A stretch of DNA of 43,930 nt from a virus (taxonomy: Duplodnaviria > Caudoviricetes). The position numbers were made by a program, and so were the translations under genes. This document shows positions 4,228 through 39,271 of this stretch, in pieces (positions within the stretch are counted from its first letter, which is position 1; every line of letters starts with the position of its first letter). Under the pieces are notes generated by a model. It was not told the DNA's origin and made no database searches. It saw nothing but the letters and a program-made list of their open reading frames with translations. Location: the IMG/VR virus record IMGVR_UViG_3300022697_000068, positions 1 to 43,930 of that record; one strand, 5' to 3'.

Positions 4228-4488
4228 ATGCAAAACGACACAAATCAATCTGAATTAGGCGAAAGGTGCGCCGAGTGTGGCCGTCCACTTGGGATATCTT
4301 TTTTTACGGATGTAAATGGCACCAAGGTTCACCGTGGATGCGTTGCGGCCTCTAAAGTAGTTGCTGCCAGCCACCCAACTGAAGAAATAAGCCACGTTTT
4401 CACAGTAGCGACTTGCGGCCACGAAGGATGCGAAGAGGAAATAGATGATTATAATAAACAGTGCTGGCTTCATTTTGAAAAGCCGTAG
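4228..4488 (+). CDS. small Cys/His Zn-binding protein
   Basis: CAEC..HRGC and CGHEGC..CWLH; GGAG RBS. Confidence 0.6.
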   Translation: MQNDTNQSELGERCAECGRPLGISFFTDVNGTKVHRGCVAASKVVAASHPTEEISHVFTVATCGHEGCEEEIDDYNKQCWLHFEKP

Positions 4489-12651: not shown

Positions 12652-13729
12652 ATTACCAAGAGACACAACCGGGAAAATGGTCCGGCATATTTTCGATCTT
12701 CGCCGGGTGGAGAACGGGTTGTTTTTTGATATATCTACCCCGTTGAATTTTGCGGAAAAAGAAGTCACCAAAGCATTAATCCAAAGTGATTTGGGTGACG
12801 CTATCCGATTTGACACGAAACAGAGGCGGTTGAATAAATTAATGCTGGAAGCAGATGAGGTGATTGCCGATTCTATATTGGCGATGGATAAGGATTTGAG
12901 AAAAAGTTTAAGGGAATTGGCTATCATGGAATCAGATTTTGCCGGGACGGTGTTGCAGGAAGCCACAGGGAGCAATACGGGGCTAAAAGTCCAGTTCGGG
13001 GTTGGGGTATTGGATGCCGGTTTGCTCAAGCGGATAATCAGGGAGGAGCCTTTTAATGGTATCCAATTAGCAAGCTGGTGGAAAAGGCAAAGATTTGCAA
13101 CGCGAGCGGAATTCAGAAAGCGGTTGAGTCTTGGGCTTGTAAACGGGGATTCAACATCGGAATTGGTTCGGGGGATCAGGGGGACACGGGCCACAGGGTT
13201 TAAAGATGGAATGTTTAAAAGGCAGGGTCTTTCCGGCCATCAAATCAGGGCTATTATTCGGACTTCTGTCAATCAGGTTTCAAACAGGTCTGCCGAGGAA
13301 ACATACCGAGCTAATTCGGATATAACAACGACTTACGAGTATGTGGCTACGCTGGATGATCGAACAACGCCTATTTGTCGAAGCCTTGACGGTCTGATAT
13401 TCAGGTATGATGACGCGGCCGGGTCAAGACCTCCACAGCACGCGGGTTGTCGTTCGGTTATCAGGCCCATAGTGGGTTTCAAGGAATTAGGATTGAAAAA
13501 GCCGGTTGATGGCACAAGGGTGGCGCGTGGCGATACTCCTGGGCCGGTAAAAAGTTCTATTAAATATTCGGATTGGCTTAGAACCCAAGGGGTTCCAACT
13601 CAAAACAGGATATTGGGACCGGAAAGAGCAATGCTTTTCAGGCGAGGAAAAGTGACATTAAATGAAATGCTAAGAAGGGATGGAAGACTTTTAACATTGC
13701 CTGATTTGAGAAAAAGAATAAACAATTAA
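12644..13729 (+). CDS. minor head protein, MuF/SPP1 gp7 family
   Basis: YVATLDDRTTPICRSLDG..PPQHAGCRS..YSDWLRTQ..ILGPERA.LFR.G. Confidence 0.92.
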   Translation: MAKLPRDTTGKMVRHIFDLRRVENGLFFDISTPLNFAEKEVTKALIQSDLGDAIRFDTKQRRLNKLMLEADEVIADSILAMDKDLRKSLRELAIMESDFAGTVLQEATGSNTGLKVQFGVGVLDAGLLKRIIREEPFNGIQLASWWKRQRFATRAEFRKRLSLGLVNGDSTSELVRGIRGTRATGFKDGMFKRQGLSGHQIRAIIRTSVNQVSNRSAEETYRANSDITTTYEYVATLDDRTTPICRSLDGLIFRYDDAAGSRPPQHAGCRSVIRPIVGFKELGLKKPVDGTRVARGDTPGPVKSSIKYSDWLRTQGVPTQNRILGPERAMLFRRGKVTLNEMLRRDGRLLTLPDLRKRINN

Positions 13730-13761: not shown

Positions 13762-13790
13762 TTGACGAACCGGGAATTTATATATAAACT
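13762..13790 (+). promoter_or_regulatory. putative sigma70-type promoter for scaffold/capsid genes
   Basis: TTGACG-17 nt-TAAACT in an AT-rich intergenic gap, followed by GGAGG RBS. Confidence 0.45.
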
Positions 13791-13819: not shown

Positions 13820-14629
13820 ATGAGTTTTTCTAAATTAGAAAATTTGGTAAAATTTGAAGACGACGGGGGAGACAAGGGCGGCGGAACCGGGGGCGGAACG
13901 TTCAACCAGGGTCAGGTTAATGAGGCGGTTGAAGCGGCTGTAAAAAAAGCGGTTGGTGACGTGCAAAACCTCAAGGCCAATAACCAGAATTTGAAAAACG
14001 AAAAGCAAGCGGCCCTTGAAAGGGTTAAGAAATTTGACGGCGTTAGTGATGGCGACCTTACGGAACTCAGCAAGTTCAAGGAGGAAAAGGCCGAACTCGA
14101 AAAAAAGAAAGCGTTGGATGCCGGTAAATGGAAAGACCTTGAAGTGCAGTTGATCGAGAAGCACGATGTAACCATGAAGGAAAAAGACAGTCGCATTAAT
14201 TTCCTCATGACCGAAGTAACCAAACATGTCACTGATTCTCAGCTTACGAAGTCATTGGCAAAGGTAGGCGGTCAACCACACTTGATACTCCACGCATTGA
14301 AGGAGCATGTTAAATTAGTTGAAAATGATAAGGGGATTCATGCGGTCGTAATTGATCCTTTGACCGGAAATGAAAGAATTGCCGATGATAAGGGGACCAA
14401 GATGACTATGGATCAACTTGTCGAAGATTTCAAAAGCAAGGATGAGTGGGCCGGTGCATTTGCTGGTTCGGGTCAAAGCGGTATGGACACGAAAAACAAT
14501 AATACGCGAAAGGGGAACCCCACAGGAGCGCAGATGACACAAACGCAATTTTCTAATCTGGATTTAAAGCAAATGGAATTTGCGAGAGAAAGACGTGCAA
14601 AGGGAGAACTTACAATAGTTGCAGGTTGA
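13820..14629 (+). CDS. capsid scaffolding protein
   Basis: Charged coiled coil, G-rich N-terminus, FAGSGQSG motif, directly before the capsid gene. Confidence 0.8.
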   Translation: MSFSKLENLVKFEDDGGDKGGGTGGGTFNQGQVNEAVEAAVKKAVGDVQNLKANNQNLKNEKQAALERVKKFDGVSDGDLTELSKFKEEKAELEKKKALDAGKWKDLEVQLIEKHDVTMKEKDSRINFLMTEVTKHVTDSQLTKSLAKVGGQPHLILHALKEHVKLVENDKGIHAVVIDPLTGNERIADDKGTKMTMDQLVEDFKSKDEWAGAFAGSGQSGMDTKNNNTRKGNPTGAQMTQTQFSNLDLKQMEFARERRAKGELTIVAG

Positions 14630-14639
14630 TTTATATGCA

Positions 14640-14759
14640 GCCCTCGGTTGGACCGAGGGCGACAAAGTTTAGATTATTAAACGGTTGGACCGTTGCCCAT
14701 TCGGGGTTGGACTCCAATGGATTATTTTTCAATAATTTTTCATCGGAGTTAGACCAATG
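14640..14759 (+). promoter_or_regulatory. structured leader: three GT-TGG-AC hairpins plus anti-RBS
   Basis: GCCCTCGGT-TGG-ACCGAGGGC; AACGGT-TGG-ACCGTT; CCATTcGGGGT-TGG-ACTCCAATGG; GACTCCAATG can alternatively pair with CATCGGAGTT. Confidence 0.75.
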
Positions 14760-15902
14760 GCTAACGATTTCAGCAATTTGTTTCAGAACATTTTAAAATT
14801 CGGAGCCTTGGCTTTGCGTGAAAATTCAATCATGCCAAGGTTGGTTTCTCAGGACTTCGGACCTGAGGAAGCCCAAAAAGGTCAGGTTATTAACATTTCC
14901 ATACCACGACCCAAAACGACAGAGAATGTCGCCCCCGGAGCGGCGCAAACCGGGAATGACCGTCAACACGATTTGCATCCTATCACTATGGACCAGTGGA
15001 AGCAGTCCAGCTTCAACATCACCGACAAAGAAGAGAGGGAAGTTTTCGAGCAAGGAATTTTGCCTGCCGATTCATCCGAGGCTATCAAGGCGTTGATGAA
15101 CGAAGTTGATAATTACATCATCAACAAAATGCTGTTGAAGATGCCTTACACGGTTGGGTCTGCGGCTCCCGTGGCAGTAGCCGACATCGTGGATGCTCGA
15201 ACCGCAATGGTTAAGCAGTTGGCTCCGGTATCTGGATTGAATTACATTATGAATCCAGACACCGAAGGCGCAATGCTGAAATTGGGGACATTCCACCAAG
15301 CGGACCAGAGCGGGAACCTTGCAGGATTGCAGGAAGGAAACCTTGGGCGTAAATTCGGATTCCAGATGTTCATGGATCAGAATTTGACCGGGAAAACTCT
15401 GGTCTCCGGCACGAAGGCGGGGACCATTCTGACCAATGGCGCAATTGTCGTTGGGCAGACCGCTATTCCGATTGACGGCGGAACGGTTTCAACTACGTTG
15501 GTTCCGGGCGACACTGTGAAGTTCGCAGGCGACCCAAATACCTACATCGTGACCAATTCGGTTGCGAGTGTTCTTGCTGGGACCATGAACATCTTTCCGC
15601 CTGCGAAAGTTGCGATTGGGGATGGAGCGGTTGTAACACCTATTTATACTGCCTCGCAGATCGTTACCTATCATTCCATCGCTTCACATCCAACGGCGTT
15701 CGGTTTCGTCAACCGTCCAATGCGGGTTGCCCGTGATGGACTCGGCGTTGTGAGCACGGCTATTGTTGACCCGATTACCGGCCTTAGTTTGAGGCTGGAA
15801 GTCACCCGGAACAACAAGCAGGATAATTGGTCGTGGGATATTCTTTATGGAGGCGATGTAGTACGCCCTGAATTTGGAGCGTTCAACACCGCAATAGTTT
15901 AA
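14757..15902 (+). CDS. major capsid protein (P22 coat/gp5-like, HK97 fold)
   Basis: ALRENSIMPRLV..KGQVINI..GNLGRKFGFQMFMDQN..HPTAFGFV.RP..GLSLRL..WDILYG..VRPE. Confidence 0.92.
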   Translation: MANDFSNLFQNILKFGALALRENSIMPRLVSQDFGPEEAQKGQVINISIPRPKTTENVAPGAAQTGNDRQHDLHPITMDQWKQSSFNITDKEEREVFEQGILPADSSEAIKALMNEVDNYIINKMLLKMPYTVGSAAPVAVADIVDARTAMVKQLAPVSGLNYIMNPDTEGAMLKLGTFHQADQSGNLAGLQEGNLGRKFGFQMFMDQNLTGKTLVSGTKAGTILTNGAIVVGQTAIPIDGGTVSTTLVPGDTVKFAGDPNTYIVTNSVASVLAGTMNIFPPAKVAIGDGAVVTPIYTASQIVTYHSIASHPTAFGFVNRPMRVARDGLGVVSTAIVDPITGLSLRLEVTRNNKQDNWSWDILYGGDVVRPEFGAFNTAIV

Positions 15903-15915
15903 GTTTTTCTGGGTT

Positions 15916-15939
15916 GGGGGCTTCGGCCCCCTTTCTTTT
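15916..15939 (+). terminator. intrinsic terminator after capsid gene
   Basis: GGGGGC-TTCG-GCCCCC followed by TTTCTTTT. Confidence 0.9.
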
Positions 15940-15978
15940 GCCTACCATTATTAATCAATTTAAAATCGAGGTTCCAGA

Positions 15979-16801: not shown

Positions 16802-19228
16802 ATGGCACTCATCATAGACCCAGATTCATTATCGCAGGGGATTGAAAATGTAGTCGCCGACCTTGCGTTCACCGCTTCGGCGGCGGCTGTCACCACGTTG
16901 GCGGGTGCGGCAACGCTCCCTGCGATTGCCGCGGGCGAGTTTTTTGAAATTCGAGATTCAAGTACCCCTGGGAATAACGGATTGTATATTGAGACAGGTG
17001 GGGCACCCACAACCAGTTTAATCACAGCCGCAAAATTAACAGGAGCCAACCCAGTGAATTTGGCCGCTGAATCGACATCAATATTCGGCACGACCGGGGC
17101 GAGCACGGAAAAGTCAGTTCATTTCGACACCGGCGCAAAAGAAGTGTGGCTTATCGAGCAGGGGAATCTTGACGTTGCTGGCGTGAACGGGCAACCTCTT
17201 TATTCTTTTATAAAAGAAGAGTGGAAAAATGACCAGTTCCTTAAACGATTTCCGTTCCCAATGGCAACGATTGATGCGGATGCCGGAAAATATCTTTGGG
17301 GGACAGACGGTTCAACATTTTCTGGTTGGAAAATGCGTGACGATACTCCGCAGTCAGTAAGGTCAAGAAAGTTGATGAGGCTTGCGGGTTGGTCTGAATT
17401 CGATATCACCGGGGCGTTGAGCCGTGATTATCCTGCAATTAAAACTCTGGGCGGATTCGAGGACACAGCGGCTGACACAGCCTATTATTCTTTCGGAACT
17501 GATAACACGGATACGGGAGCGGCGATTGATTTTGATTTCTCCGGGCCTGTGAATGAATCTATTTTAGCTTATGAGGATTTCGGGAATCCGGGTGCTACCA
17601 CAGCGTTTGCAACGTCAAACACAATAACAAGAACTGCCGGGTCATTCTTGACGGACGGGTATCAGGTGGGCGGTAAAGTAAATTCGAGATTGGCTGAGGA
17701 TGTTGGGAACAACGGGTCATTTGTCATCACAGCGATTGCCGCTTTAACCATAACTGTGACGGGTATTCCTTTCACCGTGAACGCGGACGATACTACCGTC
17801 CAGCTTGCAGTAGACAACAGGACCGTTTTTAACATTCGGTTGCGCGTTCGGGATGGCGATGTAAACGGGAAAACATACGATCAGTCTAATTTGGTTGCCA
17901 TCGGTGAAACGACTCTTTCAAACAGAATTTTTCCTTTTCCTCTTTCAAATATCACTGATACAAATATTTCTGAAACAGATGCCAATATTGACGCCAACGC
18001 GCCATATACTGCGATGCAAATCAGGTATTTCCAAACCGCGTATTCAAAGGATGTTGATAGCGCGACCAATCGCAATTTTGGGATAGTGGCAGACATAGGG
18101 ACTCACTCAGGCGTTGACGGGTCAATAACTGCGGCTGGAACGGTATTAACCACTGCGGTTGGCGGGATAGTCGATGACACGCGGTATGAAGGAGGAACAC
18201 TCACCCTGCATGACGGATCAGACGAAGGAATTGTATTTACCATCGGTTCTGGGGTAGGTGATGTCACGGCGACCACCGTGACCATTTCTGCGGGGACATT
18301 CACGGCGACAGAAACGGTTTCATTTACAATTCAAAGGGCGGCTCCGATTGTCGCAAGTAAATTTCAAATATTTGAATTCCTTCAAAGAGAATTGAGGCGA
18401 GATGCAGATATAAACGCTTTAACCCCTGTCGTTACCGGGAGAACGGCTGGCGAGATTGCGGCCTTTGAAGGTGCTATTCTAAGGTTGGGAGAAAAACTTC
18501 CTATAAATCCTGCGGGCGGCGGATCGGGCGTGATTGTCGAAGGCTTTGACACGAATGATACAAATAATCTTTCGTTTGTCGATAACCTTGGCCTGCGAAG
18601 AACATTCCCGTTTGTTGCCGCCGGATCATTGAACTTCAATGCGGCCCTGGTAAACGATACGGCCCCGGAGTATGTAATGTATTTTGAGTTTACCGTGCAG
18701 ACGGCGGTTTCGGATGGCGTTCTTGCCGCTCCCGCCGGAAGGGATACTACGCTGACATCGGCGGGCGCAAACCTCCCGGTTGTCACCGCAGGTCAGTATA
18801 TAAATATTGCCGGATTCACCGGAGGCGTGGGGAATGGAAGTAATGGAACGTATGTCGTTACAGGAACACCAACAACCTCTTCAATTGCGTTGACGAAATT
18901 TGGCGTGGGAAACCCAGTTGCAGAAACGGCGGTGGCTATCGCGGTTGGCGAAAATCCAATTGACACGCCAGACGCAATAATTGTTCAAGACAATTCTGCC
19001 GCTAATATTTCGGGTGTCATTTCTGGCGCGGTCATTCCTTTTGATTTTGATTATGATAACAACGTGCAAGGCGGAAGGACTGCCGCTACCAATGCAACTG
19101 TCGCTATCAGGGCGATTGGGTTGGAAAGCGGTCAATTTGCGGAGGCAAGAAATCAGATTGTGAGTAGGGCGACTGGGCTTTCATTCACAATCAACGCCGC
19201 GACCGAACGTAATTATGCAAATCCATAA
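16802..19228 (+). CDS. large virion structural protein with repeated beta-barrel inserts
   Basis: 808 aa, A/G/T-rich; LYSFIKEEWK..FPFPM; C-terminal FDFDYDNNVQGGRT..ERNYANP; strong AAGGAG RBS. Confidence 0.75.
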   Translation: MALIIDPDSLSQGIENVVADLAFTASAAAVTTLAGAATLPAIAAGEFFEIRDSSTPGNNGLYIETGGAPTTSLITAAKLTGANPVNLAAESTSIFGTTGASTEKSVHFDTGAKEVWLIEQGNLDVAGVNGQPLYSFIKEEWKNDQFLKRFPFPMATIDADAGKYLWGTDGSTFSGWKMRDDTPQSVRSRKLMRLAGWSEFDITGALSRDYPAIKTLGGFEDTAADTAYYSFGTDNTDTGAAIDFDFSGPVNESILAYEDFGNPGATTAFATSNTITRTAGSFLTDGYQVGGKVNSRLAEDVGNNGSFVITAIAALTITVTGIPFTVNADDTTVQLAVDNRTVFNIRLRVRDGDVNGKTYDQSNLVAIGETTLSNRIFPFPLSNITDTNISETDANIDANAPYTAMQIRYFQTAYSKDVDSATNRNFGIVADIGTHSGVDGSITAAGTVLTTAVGGIVDDTRYEGGTLTLHDGSDEGIVFTIGSGVGDVTATTVTISAGTFTATETVSFTIQRAAPIVASKFQIFEFLQRELRRDADINALTPVVTGRTAGEIAAFEGAILRLGEKLPINPAGGGSGVIVEGFDTNDTNNLSFVDNLGLRRTFPFVAAGSLNFNAALVNDTAPEYVMYFEFTVQTAVSDGVLAAPAGRDTTLTSAGANLPVVTAGQYINIAGFTGGVGNGSNGTYVVTGTPTTSSIALTKFGVGNPVAETAVAIAVGENPIDTPDAIIVQDNSAANISGVISGAVIPFDFDYDNNVQGGRTAATNATVAIRAIGLESGQFAEARNQIVSRATGLSFTINAATERNYANP

Positions 19229-19242
19229 CCGAAAGGAAGTTT

Positions 19243-19689
19243 ATGTCAGGCTTTTGTTTTTATTTTGAGAAGGGGGACCCAGGTGTAGAAAATTGGTTCA
19301 CCACTGCTCAGGCGTGGGGGATTCGGCGACTTGCTTGCATAAAGGCTGTCCACCGGCCCATTCAGATTGAAGTACCACCAGAAATTGAATTAAATGTTTA
19401 CAGAAACGCTGATGAGTGGATAGAGTCTACCAAAATCCCGATTTATATTGTCGGGGCAAATGATTTGGAATCCGGGATTGATTTAAATAAATTTAAGCAT
19501 CCAGTCGAATGTTGGTATTGGTTCGGGCCTCAAGGCGGGCATAGGCGTACTCATCCGATTGTAAATGAGATAATCAGAGTTGGACAACACGGGAAGTATA
19601 GCTTACCTTCATGCTTCACTGCTCCAATCATTGCACAGAGTAGGTATGAGTATGAAACTAAAAAATTATTGAGCATGGTTGATGGGTAG
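19243..19689 (+). CDS. divergent SPOUT (SpoU/TrmL-like) fold protein
   Basis: AWGIRRL..LNKFKHP..YWFGPQGG..IIRV..SLP..APIIAQSRY parallels the SPOUT motifs FGxE..G and SLN..A.I..Y.R. Confidence 0.5.
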   Translation: MSGFCFYFEKGDPGVENWFTTAQAWGIRRLACIKAVHRPIQIEVPPEIELNVYRNADEWIESTKIPIYIVGANDLESGIDLNKFKHPVECWYWFGPQGGHRRTHPIVNEIIRVGQHGKYSLPSCFTAPIIAQSRYEYETKKLLSMVDG

Positions 19690-19728
19690 GGCGACCATGC
19701 CTTGTCAATCTGAATAAAAGGGGCGACC

Positions 19729-20112
19729 ATGATCTTGAAAATCTTCACATTCACAATCCTTGCGGTTATCATTTTTTTTAGTCCTGCCGAAGCCAAGCAC
19801 AAACACCTTGAAAAAGAATATCAATCCGCGTGGTGTAAAATCGGGAAGATGGAACATCGCCTGCCTGACAAGAAACGCGTTGATTGTCTAACTCAATACC
19901 ATGCTATTGAATTTGATTTTGCGGAAAAGTGGGCTGAGGCAGTTGGCCAGGCGTTGCACTACGGGTTGATGACCGGGCGTTCGCCTGGGATTGTCCTGAT
20001 TATTGAGAAGCCCAAAGACATTCTAAATTATAATTTGCTTTTGTTCCTCAATGAGCAATTGAGATTAGGAATTACAGTATGGAAAATAACCCCTGCCTAT
20101 ATTGAAAAATAA
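19729..20112 (+). CDS. signal-peptide protein with PD-(D/E)xK-like core
   Basis: N-terminal hydrophobic stretch ending AEA; E..RVDC..AIEFD..EAVGQALHY..PGIVLI. Confidence 0.65.
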   Translation: MILKIFTFTILAVIIFFSPAEAKHKHLEKEYQSAWCKIGKMEHRLPDKKRVDCLTQYHAIEFDFAEKWAEAVGQALHYGLMTGRSPGIVLIIEKPKDILNYNLLLFLNEQLRLGITVWKITPAYIEK

Positions 20113-20190
20113 GGCGGCGATTGCATTGGGTTTTTTTTAAGATTATTAAATTTTATGCGTGAATTATTTCGCGGAATCTTTGGACCTTGA

Positions 20191-21885
20191 ATGGCGACAG
20201 CTACACTCACATCACAGTTAACAGACACCCTTCTTAATCCGGGTTCCCCTACAAATATAGGGACTGCCAATGCTCAAGCATCTGAAACTGTAATTAATCT
20301 TGAGGGAGCAAACGCGGCGGCTACCGGACATTCGGGATCGGTCGGGCCTGCCTCGCCGAGCACAATCAGTCAATTTCGCGGAATGTATTCGACCGTTACC
20401 GGATTCACCCGCACAGATATGCACCTGCATATTTGGGTGCGCGATCTTTACCCCATACGCAATGTGAATGTCGGGGGGATATCTTTTTACGTATTCGGTT
20501 CCAGCGAAGCCATTTATTATATGGACGGAATTGACAAAGGATATTTAGGTGATTATACGCACCTTGTTTTAAATCTTGATGCAGGCGACCGTCCGGCGGC
20601 AAGTCTTGGGACCGCACCATCCACGAACATCACTCGCGTTGGGTATGCCGGAAATATTTCAGCATCAAAGGCTGAGGCTTTTTTGCAGAATTGTTATTTC
20701 GATGCCGTGCGGCGCGGAACAGGCGGGCAGGGGATAACCTTTCGAGGCGGATTGATTGGGGACAGACTAACGTTCGCAGATTGCGCGACTGCAGACTCGG
20801 CTAGTTATGGATTGCTAAAACCAGACCTGACAGTTGAAGGCCCGTTGATATGGGGAGTGGCGGCGCAGGAAACATGGCTTGACGATAATCTTAAAACACT
20901 AAAGTTTAAAAATTTCACAGTCAATAACGGGGCGGGTGGCAACACGATTGTCACGGCGTTGGCATCCGATTATTATAGAATAATTTTTGCAAACGGAACG
21001 ACCGGCGTAACAAACATAACCCTCGTTGACGTCACATGGCAGGGAGTTTCGAGGAACACTCCATTTTCTTTTAACACTTCTGCGTTATCTAACGGAGATG
21101 CTTTCATTAGCACACGCGGAATTTATATTTTTGGATCGACAATAACATTCGGGGCGCAATCAACTTCGTCCGGCGATAGGTTTATCGAGTGCGTGACCAT
21201 TGTTCCGAATGGAATTACACTTACCAATCCAATATTTTCAAACTGCAATGCAGTAACGCTAATAGCGATCAACGATGTTATTTCAGGCGGTCAAACACAA
21301 CTTCATAGCACTGCAATAAATATACCGTTTGTCACCTCATCAAATCCTTCGGATATCACAGGCCATTTATTCGACAATACCGCCGGGACAGGACACGCCA
21401 TAGAATTTACATCTGCGACTGCGGCGGGAGCGCATACCCTGACAGGCGTTAGGTTTACGGGATACGGCGGCACGCCGGGGTCAAATTTAGTTTCTGCATC
21501 TGGAAACAGTAGCGCGGCAATCTATAATAATTCTGGGAAGGCGTTGACAATTTCAATCGCAGGCGGCGGGGATACGCCATCAGTAAGGAACGGAATAGGG
21601 GCGACAACTATAATCGTAAACAACACGCAGATTACTTTGTCTGGATTAAATAATAATACCGAAGTAACCGTCTTGACAGCAGGAACACAAACCGTCCTGG
21701 ATGAAATCGAAAACACGACCGGGGATTACGCCTTCACAGTGGCGGCGGCGGAAAGTATAGATATTTTTATTCATCATGTGGATTTCTTGAGGATCAATGA
21801 TATTTTAGCATTCACGGTTCCGGGGACGGACATTACAATACCAGTTAGCCAAATCACTGATAATAATTTTTTGAATCCAGTTTAA
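20191..21885 (+). CDS. virion structural protein (beta-sandwich/beta-helix-like)
   Basis: 564 aa, T/G/N-rich; C-terminal AIYNNSG..LTI..PSVRNG..DNNFLNP. Confidence 0.7.
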   Translation: MATATLTSQLTDTLLNPGSPTNIGTANAQASETVINLEGANAAATGHSGSVGPASPSTISQFRGMYSTVTGFTRTDMHLHIWVRDLYPIRNVNVGGISFYVFGSSEAIYYMDGIDKGYLGDYTHLVLNLDAGDRPAASLGTAPSTNITRVGYAGNISASKAEAFLQNCYFDAVRRGTGGQGITFRGGLIGDRLTFADCATADSASYGLLKPDLTVEGPLIWGVAAQETWLDDNLKTLKFKNFTVNNGAGGNTIVTALASDYYRIIFANGTTGVTNITLVDVTWQGVSRNTPFSFNTSALSNGDAFISTRGIYIFGSTITFGAQSTSSGDRFIECVTIVPNGITLTNPIFSNCNAVTLIAINDVISGGQTQLHSTAINIPFVTSSNPSDITGHLFDNTAGTGHAIEFTSATAAGAHTLTGVRFTGYGGTPGSNLVSASGNSSAAIYNNSGKALTISIAGGGDTPSVRNGIGATTIIVNNTQITLSGLNNNTEVTVLTAGTQTVLDEIENTTGDYAFTVAAAESIDIFIHHVDFLRINDILAFTVPGTDITIPVSQITDNNFLNPV

Positions 21886-23144
21886 TGGCAAGTAAAGTCA
21901 CAATTGATTATATAAATAAATTATTCATCGCCAAGGTTGGTGTGCGCTCATTGGATGTGGCGATAGATATCTACTCGGATTACAAGGAAGATGTGAAGCC
22001 GTCAATGGATGACCAGTTAGGTAGATCGCCTCTTGCAATTCGAGCTATAGGCGGCGACCCAATTTCTCCGATACAAGACGCAGGCTCAACTTTCTTCATG
22101 CTAAATGGATGGAGGATAAGACCTGACGAGGCAGACCACGAATTGGAAATAGTGGGGAACCTTTTTACGGCCCCGGTAACAGAGGCGTTGGTGGTGCCGA
22201 CATTAGGAACATTCACGGTTCTTATAAAGCAGAAAGTTTCCAACCTTGTCGATTCATCGGTTGCACGCCTGGACCTTACTCAATTATTGCCAGCCGTTTA
22301 TATTGATTCAACGAATGGAACGGCGGGAACCGTTTCTGGTATTGGGACACCAACAAACCCATCCAGCAATTTAGCGGACGCGACGACCATTGCAAACAGA
22401 GATAATCTGACAGAGTTTATCCTTGTAAACACGGATATCGTATTAACGCAGAATCTGCAAAATTGGACGTTCACGGGTAAGGGGCCGGAGTTCAATTCAA
22501 GTGTTGATATCGCAGGGTTCAATGTGGGCGGGTGCAAGTTTAAATCCGTTGTAATGCTTGGAACTATGCAAGGAAAGATAGCGGCTGAGTGTTGCGGAAT
22601 AAATTTAATTTCTGGACTAGATGGATTATTTAGATCGTGTGGGTTCCAGGTAAATTTTTCAATAGCCGCGAGCGCAAATGTTACGTTCGCAGATTGTTTT
22701 TCTGAAATATCTGGCGCCATAGTTCCGGTTGCGACAATTGGATCGGGCGCAAGTGCTGGATTCCGAAATTATTCCGGTGGATTAGAGTTAAGGGGAATGA
22801 CGGTTGGAAATATAGTTTCAGTCGATCTTGACCCTGGCGACCTTGTCATAAATGCGGACGTTTCGGGCGGGATATTGAGAATGAGAGGGGTAGGCGGATT
22901 CACAAATAACGGAACTGGCCTCACGATAATTGATGATGGATTTTTCGACACAAAAAGATCGTCCATAGCAACTGCGACCCTAATCGACCAGTTGGTTACA
23001 AACCCAGTGACAGGGAACCTGGAATTGTGGAACCCAGCAGGTGACACGCTTCTTTATGCATGGCCTCTGACCGACAATACTGGGTTTGCTCCTTATGATG
23101 GAACATTCAATCCAGACAAGAGAGGGATTCGGGTTGATGTATGA
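21885..23144 (+). CDS. virion structural protein (beta-helix-like C-terminal part)
   Basis: DIYSDYKE..IGGDPI..FFMLNGWRIRP..GNLF; GTPTNPSSNL; TAATG coupling. Confidence 0.7.
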   Translation: MASKVTIDYINKLFIAKVGVRSLDVAIDIYSDYKEDVKPSMDDQLGRSPLAIRAIGGDPISPIQDAGSTFFMLNGWRIRPDEADHELEIVGNLFTAPVTEALVVPTLGTFTVLIKQKVSNLVDSSVARLDLTQLLPAVYIDSTNGTAGTVSGIGTPTNPSSNLADATTIANRDNLTEFILVNTDIVLTQNLQNWTFTGKGPEFNSSVDIAGFNVGGCKFKSVVMLGTMQGKIAAECCGINLISGLDGLFRSCGFQVNFSIAASANVTFADCFSEISGAIVPVATIGSGASAGFRNYSGGLELRGMTVGNIVSVDLDPGDLVINADVSGGILRMRGVGGFTNNGTGLTIIDDGFFDTKRSSIATATLIDQLVTNPVTGNLELWNPAGDTLLYAWPLTDNTGFAPYDGTFNPDKRGIRVDV

Positions 23145-23446
23145 TAGTCGCCAGGGGATTGGGTTTCGGCGGCGGGTCGATTATTGCCCGTGGATACGGG
23201 TTCGATGTGCGCGGGAGGCCAATAATCGGTCGCCGTGGAAGTATTTTTGCACGTTTACAGATTCTTTCCTTAATGAATACGAAGGTTTTGGAAATGGAAG
23301 CCATTGAAGCTAATATTCAGGCAGATCAAATTGCATCCACAGTTGAATTAATTGGCGGGAATATCACTCAAGTAGTGCAAAACTCCGGGGGTACTGTTAA
23401 AATGTCAATTGAGGTCGATTCGATTTCAGCTTCAATAGAGGTCTAA
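23141..23446 (+). CDS. hypothetical structural protein
   Basis: IVARGLG / IIARGYG N-terminal repeat; ATGA overlap. Confidence 0.6.
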   Translation: MIVARGLGFGGGSIIARGYGFDVRGRPIIGRRGSIFARLQILSLMNTKVLEMEAIEANIQADQIASTVELIGGNITQVVQNSGGTVKMSIEVDSISASIEV

Positions 23447-23448
23447 AA

Positions 23449-23757
23449 ATGGCAGTTGCCAAAGATAAAATTTTTGAAGTAGGGCAAAAATTAAGATTCA
23501 ATGTGGAGACAAAGAACAAGGCGGGGGTTCTAACTGATCCAACCACTCTGGTTTTCAGGATCAAGCCCCCGGTTGCCATAGAGTTCACAAAAGTATTCCC
23601 GGCGGATGCAGAAGTTGTTAAGGACGCCGTTGGACAATTTCATATCGAGTTTACATTAGCTGAGGAAGGAGAACACCCCGTCAGGTGGGAAGCAAACGGG
23701 GCGATACAGAATTCAACCGAGGATAGAATTTCCGCAAGGGATGGAGCTTTCAATTGA
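23449..23757 (+). CDS. Ig-like small structural protein
   Basis: GVLTDPTTL.F.IKPP..VKDAVGQFH..EGEHPVRWEA.G. Confidence 0.65.
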   Translation: MAVAKDKIFEVGQKLRFNVETKNKAGVLTDPTTLVFRIKPPVAIEFTKVFPADAEVVKDAVGQFHIEFTLAEEGEHPVRWEANGAIQNSTEDRISARDGAFN

Positions 23758-24005: not shown

Positions 24006-24376
24006 TGGGATTATTTGAGACAGTGCAAAGCGCGGCTGGAACCGCGATAAAAGCGACCGGTAATATTGCATTGAAGGTCGTCTATATCAGGATTGTGGGG
24101 CCGTTAACAGCCTTCAAGCCCGGAGTCGCCCCAGAATTGCCAACCGAAGTGAAACATGAAAATATAAATGCCGTTAAATCGAATTTCAAGCAAGGGCAAG
24201 TGGATGGCGAGGTTATAAAGTCAGAGGATTTTAAGTTGCTGATTGCAAACGCCGATCTTGCCATTGGCCCGTCAAAAAGTGATTTCATAGAGGTTGATTG
24301 CATTCGATTTAGGATAGTGAATTTTAAAACGGACCCCGCAGAGGCGGTGTTCACGTTCCAAATGAGGTTGGCATGA
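24005..24376 (+). CDS. head-closure (head-tail joining) protein
   Basis: VDGEVIKSEDFKLLI..P..SDFI..FRIV..DPA..FQMR; position in the neck module. Confidence 0.75.
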   Translation: MGLFETVQSAAGTAIKATGNIALKVVYIRIVGPLTAFKPGVAPELPTEVKHENINAVKSNFKQGQVDGEVIKSEDFKLLIANADLAIGPSKSDFIEVDCIRFRIVNFKTDPAEAVFTFQMRLA

Positions 24377-24789
24377 CCACAACGGTCACACAGGCAAGGA
24401 TATCAATCCAGAAATTTTTTGATCTGGGATGGGCCGATAAAACTCCTATTGCATGGGACAACAGAAAGTTTATAATTGAGCCAGATTCGCCGTGGGTTCG
24501 GTTGTCAGTTTTACATGATGGAAGTCCGCAGGGCGGACAGCAGACGATTGGAACCACGAACATATATAGAAGGACAGGGCATGTAATTGTTCAAATTTTT
24601 GTCCCAAAAGAAACTGGAACAGATTTAGCGGATGGATATGTGCAGGACGTTCTTAACATTTTTGACGGGAAAAATACCACGCCGGAGGAAGTCATTTTCA
24701 GGTCCGGGCGGTCAAGAGAAATTGGACCGGATGGTGTTTGGTCTGGGAGAATTATATTATTCGATTTTCAGTACGATGAAATAAAGTAG
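24373..24789 (+). CDS. tail terminator protein
   Basis: IAWDN..F..PWVRLSV..YRRTG.VIVQIFVP..GT; precedes the tail tube. Confidence 0.8.
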   Translation: MTTTVTQARISIQKFFDLGWADKTPIAWDNRKFIIEPDSPWVRLSVLHDGSPQGGQQTIGTTNIYRRTGHVIVQIFVPKETGTDLADGYVQDVLNIFDGKNTTPEEVIFRSGRSREIGPDGVWSGRIILFDFQYDEIK

Positions 24790-24796
24790 ATTTTAA

Positions 24797-24877
24797 GCTG
24801 GTTGGACCGGCGAGCGGTGGGGTTGGACTTCACCGAAACAATTTAATTTAGTTTCGATAGGAGTTCAAAAAAAAATG
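24797..24877 (+). promoter_or_regulatory. structured leader: two GT-TGG-AC hairpins plus anti-RBS
   Basis: GCTGGT-TGG-ACCGGC; CGGTGGGGT-TGG-ACTTCACCG; alternative pairing GACTTC/GGAGTT with CGAAAC/GTTTCG. Confidence 0.75.
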
Positions 24878-26347
24878 AGTAATACAAATAGAGTCGCCAT
24901 TGGGATCATAAAGGAAGTAACGAAAGGAGTTACCCCTCCCGCTCCCGCATTTCAAGCCTTGAGAATCACGGGAACACCAAACCTCGCCAATACCCCGCAG
25001 GTTGTAGTATCAAACGAATTGGCCCCAGACAGGCAGATTTCAGACCGTCCATTGGTCGGACAGCAGGCGGGCGGTGATATCGGTTTCGAGGTTTCGCCAG
25101 ATGCTCTTGACGACCTTTGGGAAGGCGGGTTGTGGTCGGATTGGATAAATAAACCAGATAAATTGAATGTGACCGCCGATTCAAGTATCACAGATGTCGG
25201 AACCGTTGCGGACACCTATGCGGTTGACGCTGGCGGCGCATCATTTGTAGCCGGTCATCTTGTTAGGGCATCTGGGTTTGTTGATGCGCCAAACAACCAA
25301 AGATTCCGGGTTGTAAGTTCAACTGCAATAACGATTGTCGGCGGAGCCTTGGGTCTCACTATAAACTCGGCTCCGCAGGCGGGAGCAAGGTTGCAGGTTG
25401 TGGGGTTTGAGGGCGCGGCGGATGATCTTGATTTAACCACCGCGGGCGGAAATAAAATGACATCAACGCTGTTAGATTTTACCACGCTAGGCCTTGTGGT
25501 CGGTGAATGGATCAAGATCGGCGGCGGGGTTGCAATCAATCAATTTGCAATACCTGGGAATAACGGATGGTATAGAATTTCATCCATTGCTACAAGTGCG
25601 CTCGGATTTGATATTGTTCCGACCGGATTTGCAATAGAGGCTTCGGTTGGATCATTGCAGGTACAGTGCTGGATCGGCGATTATATCCGAAATGGGGTGG
25701 TAGAGCATACCTTTGCGATTGAGCGGCAGTTTCAGGATCATTCGCCAGTCACCTATGAATATTTCAATCAGCAGACGATTGGGAATCTGAATCTAACAGG
25801 CGGGGCGCAGGCTATTTTGACTGGCGTTGCCACCTTCCTTGGAACTAAGTCGAATATTCAGGATTCAGGGAGATTTTCAGGGGCGACAGATATTGCCGCA
25901 CCCACGAATGATGTTATGAACACATCGAATCACGTTACCAAAATCGGGGAAGGCGGGGTTGAAGTCACCGGACCCAATTTTGTTCTTGGTTTTGGTGTCG
26001 CAATCAATAACCAGTTGCGTGGCAACCCCGGTATTGGTTCGGTTGGGCTTGTTGATATTGGATCGGGTGAGGCGGATATCACCGGAACCCTTTCAACGTA
26101 TTTTGGCGACAAGACTCTTGTCGAGAAAGTTTTAAACAATACCAAAACCGATCTGCATATTGCATTGGAGAACGGAACCGACCTCAAGGCAATCATCATG
26201 GATTTGCCAAGGGTCAAATATACCCAAGGTGCGCCTGCCGTACCGGGTAAAAATAATGACGTTACCTTGCCGCTAGAATTTGGAGCGCAGAAGCATGAAA
26301 CGCTCGGTTATACGATGCACGTTCAAAGGCATCACGAAACAGTCTAG
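24875..26347 (+). CDS. major tail tube protein with two inserted domains
   Basis: EVTKGVTP..LRITG..SNEL..DRQ..GGDIGFE..FAIERQF..ITGTLSTYF..LPRVKY. Confidence 0.88.
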   Translation: MSNTNRVAIGIIKEVTKGVTPPAPAFQALRITGTPNLANTPQVVVSNELAPDRQISDRPLVGQQAGGDIGFEVSPDALDDLWEGGLWSDWINKPDKLNVTADSSITDVGTVADTYAVDAGGASFVAGHLVRASGFVDAPNNQRFRVVSSTAITIVGGALGLTINSAPQAGARLQVVGFEGAADDLDLTTAGGNKMTSTLLDFTTLGLVVGEWIKIGGGVAINQFAIPGNNGWYRISSIATSALGFDIVPTGFAIEASVGSLQVQCWIGDYIRNGVVEHTFAIERQFQDHSPVTYEYFNQQTIGNLNLTGGAQAILTGVATFLGTKSNIQDSGRFSGATDIAAPTNDVMNTSNHVTKIGEGGVEVTGPNFVLGFGVAINNQLRGNPGIGSVGLVDIGSGEADITGTLSTYFGDKTLVEKVLNNTKTDLHIALENGTDLKAIIMDLPRVKYTQGAPAVPGKNNDVTLPLEFGAQKHETLGYTMHVQRHHETV

Positions 26348-26383: not shown

Positions 26384-26788
26384 ATGTCGGACATCTGGAA
26401 ACAATTTGAAACTGATAAGAAGATTGAGCAGGAGGGATTGTGGATCGACTTCGGTGATTATCAGTGGCTATGCAGAAGGGCAGGCGGTTCAAACGTAAAA
26501 TTTAAAGAAGCGTTTGCCCGTGAAACAAAAAAGTTGAAACAGGTTATGGAGTTGGAAGATTTGCCGGACGCAAAAGGCAGAGAAGTTTTGGCCAAGGTAT
26601 TTTCATCCCATGTAGTACTTGATTGGAAAGGGATGGTTGGTAGAAACGGGGATGAGTTGGAGTTCACAATGGAAAATGTCGCTATGATATTTACCGAAAT
26701 CCCAGATTTTTTCGACCGACTCAGGGAGCGGTTAATGGGCCACGGTTTGTTTCTGAAAGATATTGAAGAGGCAGAATTGGGAAAATAA
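26384..26788 (+). CDS. tail assembly chaperone (gpG-like)
   Basis: FETDKKIEQEGLW..RRAGGSN..VLDWKG..IPDFF; ends LGK on a slippery site. Confidence 0.85.
   Translation: MSDIWKQFETDKKIEQEGLWIDFGDYQWLCRRAGGSNVKFKEAFARETKKLKQVMELEDLPDAKGREVLAKVFSSHVVLDWKGMVGRNGDELEFTMENVAMIFTEIPDFFDRLRERLMGHGLFLKDIEEAELGK
26779..26785 (+). other. -1 programmed ribosomal frameshift site GGGAAAA
   Basis: X XXY YYZ heptamer just before the stop; -1 frame GGG AAA ATA ACC GCT TTC ATG is open into ORF 26797. Confidence 0.8.
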
Positions 26789-26796
26789 CCGCTTTC

Positions 26797-27147
26797 ATGG
26801 ATCATAGGTTGGGCATGGGCGAGCATTCGGATGACATCGCCCGTGCCGCCCGTGCAAGCGGCCAGCCTGTACCGCCCGGATGCGATCAACCGAGTATCAG
26901 GGCGGACCTTGTTTTTTTTGTAGAGGCTTACGATACCCTGTCAACTTGTAGAATTGGAGGGCATATACCTTGGACTGCGGTTCTGGAATATGCAAGGTGT
27001 TACGGGGTTTCATTAGACAACGGGTTTGATTTTTTATGGAAAGTCATTCATTCAATGGACCAAATGGAATTAAAGAATAAAAAAAATAAGGTGGATGCCG
27101 ATGAGCGATTTAAAAAGATTCGGGAAAAGGATCGACAAGCTCAGTAA
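26797..27147 (+). CDS. tail assembly chaperone C-terminal extension (gpT-like)
   Basis: AYDTLSTCR..IPWTAVLEYA..YG..I..MD; -1 frame relative to the upstream chaperone. Confidence 0.8.
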   Translation: MDHRLGMGEHSDDIARAARASGQPVPPGCDQPSIRADLVFFVEAYDTLSTCRIGGHIPWTAVLEYARCYGVSLDNGFDFLWKVIHSMDQMELKNKKNKVDADERFKKIREKDRQAQ

Positions 27148-27529: not shown

Positions 27530-30315
27530 TGGCACTTGAACGCATAGAAATACTCATCACCCAAAAAGGCGCCAGGATTGTAAAAAATGCCATCAAGGGC
27601 ATCGGTTCGTCTGCCGTTACCGCAGGGATTCAGGTTGCGAAGTTCACGACCATTGCGGCGGCATTAGGCGCGGGGTTTGCGATCAAACAGGCGGCTGATT
27701 TTGAATCATCAATGCTGAGTGTCGCTAAGACAACGGGGATTGTGGGCGAAGAGCTAAAGGCATTATCTGATGATTTCATAGAGTTAACAAAAAGCGTTCC
27801 ATCATCCGCGGAAGAACTCGCCAACATTGGAGCAATCGCAGGACAACTTGGAATTCAGGCACGATCCGACATAGTCATATTCACAGATACCGTTGCAAAG
27901 ATGGCGGCTGTCACAGACTTATCAGCAGAGAGTGCCGCAACATCACTCGCCGAATTGTCAAACGTATTTAAATTGCCTATCGGCGAAGCGGCAAAACTCG
28001 GATCGGCATTAAATGAAGTTGCAAATACTACAACTGCAAGTGCCGAAGTTTTAGTTAATTTTTCCCAGAGAATAGGTGTCGTAGGCAGGCAGGTAGGATT
28101 ATCGGCGGCTGATGTTATCGGACTATCGGGAACATTAAAAGGATTAGGATTTAACGCTGAATTGGCTGGTACAGCAGTAAGTAAAACATTCATACAATTA
28201 ATTACAAACACAGAAACATTCGCAGAACAATCAGGAGTTTCGGTCAAAGAATTCAGGAAAAATTTAGAAAGAGATGCTATAGGAACTGTAATAAAATGGG
28301 CGGAGTCGATAAATGAATTACCAAAAGAAGAATTAATAAATGCCCTCGATGAAGCTGGGGTAAAGGGTGCTAGAGCTTTACCTGTATTCCTTGCGCTATC
28401 AGGCGCAACGGCGGACCTTGCAAAGAATGTAGGCACATCAAATAAAGCATTCAAAGAAGCAACCAGCCTTCAAGATGAATTTAATATACAGATTGGATCA
28501 ACTGCAAATCAAGCAAAACTTTTAGGAAACGTTATAAACGCATTATTCATTGACCTTGGAACCGATCTACTCCCGACAGTAAAATTAATGATACAGGCCC
28601 TAAAAGAGGTTGCCAATTCAGATGAGGCGATAATATTTTTCGAGAATTTAAAGTTGTCAGCCAATGATATGTCGGAGTCATTCAAGCAGGACGGCGGGAG
28701 CTTCATACAGACTCTAAAATTCATGGCGACTGCCGCAACCGCGTTTGTAAATATTTTAAAGGTCGGGTTTGTTCTTGCTGGGACAGTTTTCAACGGGATC
28801 ATAAAATTAGTTTTACAAGTTGAGCGTGGCTACGAAAAGGCGACACTCGCCTTTCAGAAATTTGCTAAACTATTCCAAGCGGACAGCGCAAAACTTGATG
28901 CGGCAATAAGAAAAACGGAATCAAATATTGTCGGGCTTGATAGTGAAATAGGCGGATTGGATAAATCTATTTCTAATGGATTACAGTCAATAGTGGATAT
29001 GTCAGCCAGCTTTGATACTATGTCAGCCAAGGTACGGGCGGGGACAGATGACCAGAAAAAACTTTCAAGGGATACTCAAAGCGTTGCGGATAGTTTCGAT
29101 AAGGCAAACGATAAATCGAAAAAGTTTTCCGAGGAATTACCGGGAAAAGCAGATATTGAAGGTCTTGCAGATGCGTTAAAATCAATGGCAGATGAAACTG
29201 CACGATTATCCATTGCGAGTGAATCAGCCAGAGAGTTTTCGGATATCATTAATGGCATATCAGAGCAAAACGATGGGGTTGGACTTGATCCTGAAAGTTT
29301 AGAGAAATTAAGAAATGGTTTCCAGAAATTGACAGACGCAAAAACTCTTAATGGATTGAGAGAAATTAAAAAATCATTAAACGAAGAGTTTGTTGACCTG
29401 AGCACCACGGAACCTGCATTGGTAAGGCTCAATCAGCTTTTGCGTGGATTAGGTGACGTTGACCTAACACCAAAAGGAAAACAAGATTTATTAGACCTTA
29501 TAAAAAGAAATGACGACCTCAGAAAATCCGTTGAAGACAGAAACGAGGCTTTCAAACAAGCTGGTGAAATTGCAAAAGATCAAGCAAGAATTCAGAATGG
29601 ATTGACCAGAGAGGAGGCGGCATTAGGGGATGAGCTTCAAAGGTTGGCGGATATTTCCGAGGCCACAGGCGGGAAGTTATTCAACCTTGCATTGGCTCAG
29701 GAAGCCGTGGTCATGAAGTTCGGCGAAACATCAACCGATGTAGCCAAGAAAACTCAGGGTGATGTTCAAGAGGTTTTGGATGCTATTGGGAAAGGAACAG
29801 AGGATGTATTGACAGATATTTTATCAACCGGAACTTTCACGCTTGATTCATTGAACAGCGTTGTGGAATCAGTCACACAAGATATCATCCGGTCTTTTGT
29901 TAGGGCGCAAATTGAATCAGTTAAAACCAGTGCGCTTTCTCAGGGTGGCAAAGGCGGCGGTGGATTCGGCGGATTGATTCAAGCAGGGTTGGGGTTCTTT
30001 GGATTTGCAGAAGGTGGTAGCGCGAGGGTAGGCGGGTCCGGCGGGACAGATAGCACGTTGGTTTCTTTCTTCGCAACTCCTGGGGAGGATGTAACAGTTA
30101 GAACACCAGCCCAACAGGTTGGCGCATCTATTCCTAGATTCGGGGGAGGTGGAAATTTTGCGGTTGGCGATAATGGCGGGAACAATGGCGGAACAACGGT
30201 TATCAATGCCCAAACCACAATCATCACTAAGGATCAAGATTCATTCCGAAAAAGTAGGGCGCAAATCGCAAGTGGGAAACAGAAACAACTTTCACGGGCG
30301 GGGAAATTTAATTAA
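27529..30315 (+). CDS. tail tape measure protein (TP901-family core)
   Basis: AADFESSM..VAKTT..ELANIGAIAGQLGI; long helical body; C-terminal FAEGG..GGSGGTDS..TPGE.V. Confidence 0.92.
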   Translation: MALERIEILITQKGARIVKNAIKGIGSSAVTAGIQVAKFTTIAAALGAGFAIKQAADFESSMLSVAKTTGIVGEELKALSDDFIELTKSVPSSAEELANIGAIAGQLGIQARSDIVIFTDTVAKMAAVTDLSAESAATSLAELSNVFKLPIGEAAKLGSALNEVANTTTASAEVLVNFSQRIGVVGRQVGLSAADVIGLSGTLKGLGFNAELAGTAVSKTFIQLITNTETFAEQSGVSVKEFRKNLERDAIGTVIKWAESINELPKEELINALDEAGVKGARALPVFLALSGATADLAKNVGTSNKAFKEATSLQDEFNIQIGSTANQAKLLGNVINALFIDLGTDLLPTVKLMIQALKEVANSDEAIIFFENLKLSANDMSESFKQDGGSFIQTLKFMATAATAFVNILKVGFVLAGTVFNGIIKLVLQVERGYEKATLAFQKFAKLFQADSAKLDAAIRKTESNIVGLDSEIGGLDKSISNGLQSIVDMSASFDTMSAKVRAGTDDQKKLSRDTQSVADSFDKANDKSKKFSEELPGKADIEGLADALKSMADETARLSIASESAREFSDIINGISEQNDGVGLDPESLEKLRNGFQKLTDAKTLNGLREIKKSLNEEFVDLSTTEPALVRLNQLLRGLGDVDLTPKGKQDLLDLIKRNDDLRKSVEDRNEAFKQAGEIAKDQARIQNGLTREEAALGDELQRLADISEATGGKLFNLALAQEAVVMKFGETSTDVAKKTQGDVQEVLDAIGKGTEDVLTDILSTGTFTLDSLNSVVESVTQDIIRSFVRAQIESVKTSALSQGGKGGGGFGGLIQAGLGFFGFAEGGSARVGGSGGTDSTLVSFFATPGEDVTVRTPAQQVGASIPRFGGGGNFAVGDNGGNNGGTTVINAQTTIITKDQDSFRKSRAQIASGKQKQLSRAGKFN

Positions 30316-38633: not shown

Positions 38634-38645
38634 AAAGGGAATAAA

Positions 38646-39002
38646 ATGAAAGTTGAATTTGATACTTTTGATAAAAGGTCGAAGGCGGCAACCCTGCTTT
38701 ACCCGGACGAAAAAAATATAAATGCGCGTGTAAGAAAATTAGAGGCCGAAAATGGGTTGGAGGCGTTCACGATAAAAGAAATTTTATATCAGAGAAGAAA
38801 TCCAGGGCAGATTTCAAAACCTATAAAGCCTATGGAGAGAAAATGCCCACAATGTGATGGTAGGATGTTTGTTAAGGGCGTCTGCCCAAGTTGTGATGCG
38901 TTTGCCCAAGGGATGCGGACCCATTGGATTTGCTCAGGGTGCAACGCAGAACAATATTCAAAAAAGGACCAAGGGACATGGATGAAGGAATTATCGGGTT
39001 AA
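38646..39002 (+). CDS. triple-CxxC Zn-binding protein
   Basis: CPQC, CPSC, CSGC. Confidence 0.7.
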   Translation: MKVEFDTFDKRSKAATLLYPDEKNINARVRKLEAENGLEAFTIKEILYQRRNPGQISKPIKPMERKCPQCDGRMFVKGVCPSCDAFAQGMRTHWICSGCNAEQYSKKDQGTWMKELSG

Positions 39003-39271
39003 TTTTATTGGGAATAGTAACGGAGAATATCACGCACATTTTCCAGCGTGGTAAAATATTTGAAACCGCAAGAAATTTTTTTGAGTTTCGATTGCCTCAA
39101 GTGCATTGCCTTCTCAATTGCCAGTTGTGCCTTTCCTTTTGGGTGGCGTTTGGGGTTTTCGTGGCATACGGTTTTTTTGCGGCTGTGGTCTTAAATTTCT
39201 ACATAGTTTTGTCGGTGCACGCATTTGCGCGTTATGTGGGCGCAATCCATTTTTGGTTAATGAAAATATAA
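38978..39271 (+). CDS. small membrane protein, DUF1360-like
   Basis: IFETAR..LLNCQLCLSFWVA with three hydrophobic segments; start ATG 38978. Confidence 0.65.
   Translation: MDEGIIGLILLGIVTENITHIFQRGKIFETARNFFEFRLPQVHCLLNCQLCLSFWVAFGVFVAYGFFAAVVLNFYIVLSVHAFARYVGAIHFWLMKI

Follow-up and report, generated by a model that had tools for sequence, protein, structure and literature searches.

The analysed window represents a single linear virus contig of 43,930 nt, whose completeness was estimated at 74%. Its plus strand carries a siphophage morphogenesis operon with genes for terminase, portal, scaffold, a P22-type capsid, connectors, tail terminator, tail tube, chaperones, tape measure and a gene-transfer-agent-like tail tip; no replication genes were seen among the annotated ORFs of the contig. 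Leaders of 127 and 85 nt are located upstream of the major capsid and the tail tube protein genes, respectively, and the majority of the other genes abut. The two loci comprise the following features:

13820–14629, plus strand: scaffolding protein gene (phrog_206), lacking the N-terminal domain found in most relatives that bear hairpin pairs
14640–14660, plus strand: hairpin H1 of the capsid leader, 9 bp, loop UGG, outside the predicted switch
14680–14694, plus strand: hairpin H2 of the capsid leader, 6 bp, loop UGG, counterpart of H4
14703–14715, plus strand: hairpin H3 of the capsid leader, 5 bp with one G-U pair, loop UGG, counterpart of H5 and exclusive with the predicted anti-SD helix
14745–14750, plus strand: Shine-Dalgarno (SD) sequence GGAGUU of the capsid gene, predicted to be hidden in the default fold
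14757–15902, plus strand: major capsid protein gene, 381 aa (phrog_283, E 4e-59; Pfam P22_CoatProtein)
24373–24789, plus strand: tail terminator gene (phrog_179), 5' neighbour of the tube gene
24797–24811, plus strand: hairpin H4 of the tube leader, 6 bp with one G-U pair, loop UGG, beginning 7 nt past the tail terminator stop codon, predicted to be formed with P ~0.97
24815–24835, plus strand: hairpin H5 of the tube leader, 9 bp with two G-U pairs, loop UGG, predicted to form in the ON state and to be incompatible with the anti-SD helix
24826–24839, plus strand: predicted anti-SD strand of the tube leader (GACUUC and CGAAAC), sharing bases with the loop and the 3' arm of H5
24851–24865, plus strand: partner strand GUUUCG and SD sequence GGAGUU of the tube gene; shuffling of the spacer restores H5 in the predictions
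24875–26347, plus strand: tail tube protein gene, 490 aa (Pfam Phage_tube_2, E 1e-40), in the order terminator-tube-chaperone

Hairpins of the capsid and tail tube leaders

All five hairpins, two before the tube gene and three before the capsid gene, share the core GG-U[UGG]A-C, and none is found elsewhere on the contig. The first-pass annotation had placed two GGT-TGG-AC hairpins with G-U-containing stems at 24797–24811 and 24815–24835, and these coordinates proved exact. Its further claim that the clustered intergenic motif precedes only the capsid and tube genes was borne out by an exhaustive scan for GTTGGAC, which occurs 12 times on the contig, always on the plus strand (4.5 expected; none of 100 shuffles reached 12). 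Stems of at least 5 bp are present at five of the 12 sites, all of them in the two leaders. Equal frequency of motif hairpins at random positions had been raised as a check at the same time; in 300 shuffles, such hairpins averaged 0.17 and never exceeded 2.

The sequence GGTTGGAC is invariant across the five hairpins (8 nt), while the outer stems vary. In an alignment of the five, 29 of 30 cells pair and eight have changed on both sides, a value reached by none of 500 shuffles, though the count leans toward hairpins because the structure was derived from these same five sequences. The three hairpins that contain G-U pairs fold much more poorly on the minus strand. The G-U pairs, which had been taken as an argument for function at the RNA level, thus point to a single plus strand; the RNA-specific part of that argument does not follow, as they do not discriminate RNA from single-stranded DNA.

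Double-stranded DNA has also to be considered as the site of action, with GGTTGGAC serving as direct repeats, spaced by two helical turns, for a promoter or a late transcription factor. The spacing of 21 and 22 bp would suit such an arrangement, and a sigma-70-like sequence matching at 9 of 12 positions overlaps H3 (14708–14736). A role of this kind is nevertheless judged highly improbable, given that the flanks covary as stems, that G-U pairs function on one strand only and that the triloops of related phages are spaced 17 to 36 nt apart without helical phasing, compared to 21 and 22 nt here. The tube leader, moreover, has no promoter-like match, and matches of this type are frequent (39 vs. 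23 expected).

Several further elements lie close to the two leaders or resemble them. A sixth copy of GGTTGGAC, with a weak 4-bp stem, is located inside the tape measure gene (29274–29288, plus strand). Near its end, 50 nt ahead of H4, the tail terminator gene contains a G-U-rich hairpin of 11 bp with the triloop GGU (24722–24746, plus strand), whose 5' arm includes TTGGAC. The scaffold-capsid unit is bracketed by a sigma-70-like promoter match (13762–13790) and an intrinsic terminator (15916–15941, plus strand). Within this unit, a 54-codon ORF (14635–14796, plus strand) starts 5 nt past the scaffold stop codon, crosses the capsid leader and runs out of frame into the capsid gene; it lacks an SD sequence and, if translated by reinitiation, would melt the capsid leader. 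The tube leader has no counterpart of this ORF.

The final 84–85 nt of both leaders align nearly gap-free, so that H2 corresponds to H4 and H3 to H5, followed by the AU-rich spacer and the SD sequence. The inner anti-SD helices differ in sequence (AUGGA/UUCAU in the capsid leader, CGAAAC/GUUUCG in the tube leader) and retain the same pairing pattern. Given this collinear alignment, the tube leader appears to have diverged from a copy of the capsid leader, and a duplication with subsequent compensatory divergence is inferred from the alignment, convergence being the alternative. Both leaders use the SD sequence GGAGUU, as had been pointed out before, because the GAC of the motif pairs with the GUU of GGAGUU. 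The sequence is not special to them: the ORFs at 4228 and 9001 are preceded by it as well, and in total it stands before ATG or GTG at nine places.

The copy at the tube gene has a narrow distribution. Eighty tube loci yielded 66 distant, non-redundant leaders, none of which contains an N-G-N triloop pair within 120 nt of the start codon. In loci selected by their capsid gene, as in the cultured phages inspected, the tube leaders are for the most part short and contain no such pairs. The closest relatives identified by BLASTP, available as proteins only, are 70–73% identical in the capsid and 71–77% in the tube protein; direct protein scans for close relatives found none, and a metagenome scan returned one distant locus. 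Judged from these leaders, the tube copy is not general among distant orthologues. The first-pass annotation had itself named absence from orthologous tube leaders as counting against its proposal, and this is what the distant orthologues display. As regards the two-gene regulon that it had put forward, the contig supports an element acting as a single strand, most likely as RNA, with a predicted anti-RBS fold that exactly these two genes share; conservation among distant tube leaders is not supported, and such a regulon may be specific to this lineage.

Predicted competition for the Shine-Dalgarno sequences

In the minimum-energy fold of the tube leader, GACUUC (24826–24831) pairs with GGAGUU (24860–24865) and CGAAAC (24834–24839) with GUUUCG (24851–24856), which is the alternative pairing of the last hairpin's 3' arm that had been noticed by eye. 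The predicted default fold of both leaders accordingly has a buried SD sequence and has lost the last hairpin. When folding was followed along the growing transcript, H5 was predicted with P 0.99 until the SD sequence emerges and with ~0.15 thereafter, and H3 was weaker from the outset (at most 33%) before it vanished. Shuffling of the tube spacer alone restored H5 (median P 0.99), only one of 100 shuffles giving a value as low as that observed; on these predictions, the tube spacer is tuned to displace H5.

A tuned spacer bears on the proposal that the hairpins act in processing and stability. Here, an endonuclease would cut in the AU-rich stretch past the upstream stop codon and the hairpins would protect the new 5' end, thereby raising the amounts of capsid and tube mRNA over those of neighbouring genes, with the anti-SD fold being secondary. 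H1 and H4 indeed begin 10 and 7 nt past a stop codon and follow AU-rich bases, and both are folded at all times in the predictions. The phage also requires more copies of the capsid and tube proteins than of its other gene products. However, 5'-end protection requires no invariant loop, yet 8 nt are invariant in this phage and the middle G of the loop is enriched about ten-fold across lineages, and the tuning of the spacer to displace H5 is left unexplained. Processing is therefore considered unlikely as the main function.

With the hairpins held folded, the predicted cost of opening the SD sequence fell from 8.1–10.4 to 2.0–4.7 kcal/mol at the capsid gene and from 2.7–5.7 to 1.6–3.3 kcal/mol at the tube gene (four window lengths each), some of this drop being expected by construction because clamping any hairpin removes competing pairs. 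The predicted effect of the switch is thus strong at the capsid gene and weak (1–4 kcal/mol) at the tube gene. Among 45 start codons, the capsid start is the second most occluded and the tube start lies at about the median. The opening costs do not exceed those of spacer shuffles, 30 of 200 being as high for the tube and 70 of 200 for the capsid leader, and the whole leader folds better than its shuffles, only modestly so for the tube (z = -1.8) and more clearly for the capsid (z = -4.1). All of these values are equilibrium folding predictions. Folding and shuffling results taken together therefore indicate an architecture common to both leaders, in which the predicted gating is tight for the capsid gene and weak for the tube gene. 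The recurrence of the anti-RBS architecture before the tube gene, as initially claimed, holds for the pairing and not for the strength of the predicted switch.

Paired N-G-N triloops in the capsid leaders of related phages

Capsid homologues of 30–40% identity provided 109 loci, from which 65 leaders were retained after partial and redundant ones had been dropped, the leader of the contig included; 41 of these are at least 75 nt long. Leader boundaries were taken from a crude ORF call, and some of the 65 leaders include coding sequence. The class was defined by two middle-G triloops located 15–40 nt apart and 20–100 nt before the start codon, an arrangement that the leader of the contig displays. 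Ninety-seven middle-G triloops were counted in the 41 long leaders vs. 10.2 in shuffles, whereas triloops with the other middle bases remained near background (13, 11, and 9 vs. 7.4, 10.0, and 6.3). N-G-N pairs with a distance of 15–40 nt are present in 28 of the 41 leaders (0.45 expected from shuffles), and in 18 of the 41 there are pairs with identical loops (0.05 expected). The loops vary by lineage (GGU, GGG, AGU, CGA, and others). In the hairpins of the relatives, the closing pair is C-G in 50 of 57 cases and never U-A, the pair that closes all five hairpins here; because this closing pair is atypical, membership of the contig in the class rests on loop and spacing. Within the contig, intergenic N-G-N pairs occur only at the capsid and tube genes.

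Versions of the element exist in cultured phages. The Vibrio phage SSP002 carries two C-GGG-G hairpins downstream of a sigma-70-like promoter, and in YuA (L393, 505–1551) and RcRudolph (L392, 3062–4142) hairpins with G-UGA loops precede the scaffold and capsid genes. The scaffold leaders of L139 and L380 likewise contain hairpins with G-UGA loops. Since SSP002 and YuA can be cultured, the class is open to experimental testing. Start codons are more occluded in pair-bearing relatives (median 11.0 kcal/mol, n = 23) than in the others (6.9 kcal/mol, n = 30), with p 0.02 before any correction for kinship. Holding the hairpins opened the start by at least 2 kcal/mol in 12 of 22 pair-bearing relatives, and the remaining 10 displayed little or no switching. 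What seemed to be a further pair, ahead of the head-closure gene of G011, turned out on inspection to be the coding end of the adaptor gene and was not counted.

Motif scans of viral contigs did not recover a second phage with the U-A-closed UGG variant. A two-motif pattern returned at least 117 loci in 16 of 64 parts of the collection, mostly collagen-like coding repeats; a pattern of motif, SD sequence and start codon returned at least 120 loci in 21 of 64 parts, without any hairpin cluster; and a third motif pattern gave three matches, all unrelated. At the gathering score, Rfam families matched neither the contig nor four related loci. In E-value mode, the tube leader had no match and the capsid leader a single chance snoRNA match on the minus strand. 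No description of triloop pairs in capsid leaders was met in the open-access literature searched, including PMC10690425, PMC5737381, and 10.64898/2026.09.22.753630; supplementary files of PMC10690425 may list such motifs. The hairpins are a variant of a widespread, uncatalogued element that is absent from Rfam.

Candidate readers and a model for translational activation

Phage T4 escapes from SD-sequestering hairpins by means of a late promoter that omits the inhibitory arm, and these hairpins are not known to have a conserved loop code or to be paired. The helices predicted here resemble those of T4 e, soc, 49, and I-TevI, where an RNA helix hides the SD sequence and delays the late protein (PMC3014915). 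In phage Mu, Com reads a CC-NNN-GAG hexaloop, and its binding is proposed to expose the translation start of mom (PMC6483171). As described for Com and mom, a short hairpin with a recognised loop would be located beside a structure that hides the translation start, which folding predicts for both leaders; in contrast to the single gene and CC-NNN-GAG loop of that account, paired UGG triloops are found at virion genes and the Com loop motif is lacking (PMC6483171).

A different comparison is offered by CsrA, which activates ymdA by releasing an SD-sequestering hairpin (PMC7652899), and by RsmE, which binds ANGGA pentaloops, the Csr/Rsm core being A(N)GGAX (PMC4005645). The leaders share with the ymdA and phz2 targets two sites, an SD-sequestering hairpin that would be released and a GGA near the loop (PMC7652899; PMC4005645). 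Conceivably, a CsrA-like dimer of host or phage could recognise each loop as a frayed UUGGA pentaloop and switch on translation in the manner of E. coli ymdA. Every one of the five hairpins contains GGA, which would form the 3' end of such a pentaloop, and two such sites lie within the reach of a dimer, 21 and 22 nt apart. All five nevertheless read UUGGAC, with U in place of the core A, GGA is found in just three of 57 loops of the relatives, and csrA was found neither on the contig, 74% complete, nor in 21 related records, which makes a CsrA-like reader very unlikely. CsrA, in addition, directly destabilises its hairpin (PMC7652899); in the present case, it is an alternative hairpin that would gain stability.

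With Aca2, the element shares a binding platform of two neighbouring mRNA hairpins suited to a phage-coded dimer, motifs that differ between lineages and the possibility that one protein serves several operons; Aca2, however, represses anti-CRISPR operons by blocking the RBS, while activation of structural genes is predicted here (PMC13551039). Post-transcriptional control of a head operon of the same capsid family is described for the autoregulation of P22 scaffolding protein, but that scaffold acts on its own mRNA, and the scaffold of this phage lacks the N-terminal domain that co-occurs with the pairs in relatives (10.1101/2022.12.13.520362). By analogy, the element is predicted to work like Com on mom or CsrA on ymdA, with recognition as in the double hairpin of Aca2; its sequence departs from what these systems recognise, and it is a member of none of them.

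Instead of a protein, a phage small RNA complementary to GGUUGGAC might pair with the anti-SD strand and thereby free the SD sequence. In both leaders, the invariant 8-mer overlaps the anti-SD strand, its UUGG fits the YUNR U-turn of antisense target loops, and by estimate about a quarter of the genome is missing from the contig. Yet the exact complement GTCCAAC is absent from the sense strand of the contig, where only two 8-mers with one wobble were found, both within genes. H1 and H4 carry the motif and take no part in the OFF helix, a closed triloop makes a poor toehold, and only ~5 nt are conserved in the relatives. Such an anti-antisense RNA is accordingly regarded as quite unlikely.

Because the loops are the same throughout a phage and change from one phage to another, a protein reader is probably phage-coded. 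One candidate is present on the contig itself:

1522–1752, plus strand: gene for a KhpA-like KH-domain protein, 76 aa, with GXXG loop (PF13083, E 4e-20)

This gene is situated among small phage-like genes, without the usual rpsP/rimM neighbours, and has no PHROG match. Among its best non-self matches, which are up to 68% identical, one carries the name Nitrospinales and thereby hints weakly at the host. KhpA forms dimers, and a KH domain binds ~4 single-stranded bases (PMC11261784). As it was found in none of 44 related records, including five near-complete ones, KhpA was rejected as the general reader of the class; it could be the reader of the deviant variant in this phage.

Other candidates were followed on the contig and in the relatives. 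A search for Com zinc-finger genes returned no matches, as did the control search, and several unclassified Cys-rich ORFs are present on the contig. One of them (38646–39002, 118 aa), located between two phrog_4271 ORFs, was dropped as a Com-like activator, its predicted fold being unusable (pLDDT 42) and its Atlas matches staying below 0.9. In L154, a small Cys-rich, Com-like reading frame was noticed by eye just before the tube gene (~12870–12980); it has no PF10122 match at E 0.01. BLAST clustering of 2054 ORFs identified no small gene common to the pair-bearing genomes, and only core morphogenesis genes were widely shared. A conserved N-terminal domain of the scaffold (~45 residues), found in L119, L130, L164, L193, L333, L387, and others, co-occurs with hairpin pairs (21/31 vs. 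3/23). It was set aside as the reader, since a test on independent pairs was not significant (median p 0.5) and the domain is absent in this phage, and is retained as a lead for the relatives only.

Given slightly better than an even chance, the favoured reading, which draws on the folding predictions, is that the tube hairpins are a diverged copy of the capsid pair and that both dock an RNA-binding protein, which keeps the hairpins folded and the RBS open. The element would likely be a protein-activated translational switch, extended to a tail gene in this lineage. According to the folding predictions, the hairpins would form first during transcription, and the SD-burying helix would then displace the last hairpin, giving the OFF state. 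If an RNA-binding protein held the hairpins, opening of the SD sequence would become cheaper. The reader, probably a dimer, would span two N-G-N triloops ~21 nt apart and activate translation, so that capsid and tube synthesis may be timed or scaled together, with the capsid gene tightly gated and the tube gene only tuned. An apparent copy of the module at a second gene favours a diffusible reader over local folding alone. A more specific version, rather improbable as a whole, holds that a captured host KhpA chaperone became a sequence-specific translational activator, with the ancestral C-NGN-G pair recoded to U-UGG-A and the module copied from capsid to tube as a two-gene late regulon.

The timing and scaling of the most abundant virion proteins are poorly understood in tailed phages without a dedicated late polymerase. 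The lineage-coded triloop pairs found before capsid genes in many unrelated phages suggest that a layer of translational control has gone unrecognised. What is new in this contig is the apparent duplication to the tail tube gene, the U-A-closed UGG variant and a candidate reader encoded on the same contig.

The remainder of the contig exhibits several other features. Downstream of the tube gene, two tail assembly chaperone ORFs (26384–27147, plus strand) match separate halves of phrog_8233, which suggests a programmed frameshift between them; the second lacks an SD sequence, and its start region is the most structured of the 45. The host-specificity tail protein (36966–41277, plus strand) is split into two ORFs, 36966–38633 and 39106–41277, both matching phrog_4271. 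Large unannotated ORFs (808, 564, and 419 aa) occupy ~7 kb between the head-tail adaptor and head closure genes (16802–23757, plus strand). A ParB-like gene adjoins a TET-associated glycosyltransferase gene (PF20691) at 6484–8000 (plus strand), a neighbourhood that suggests DNA modification. The start of the contig (1–150, plus strand) consists of 36-bp coding repeats in tandem.
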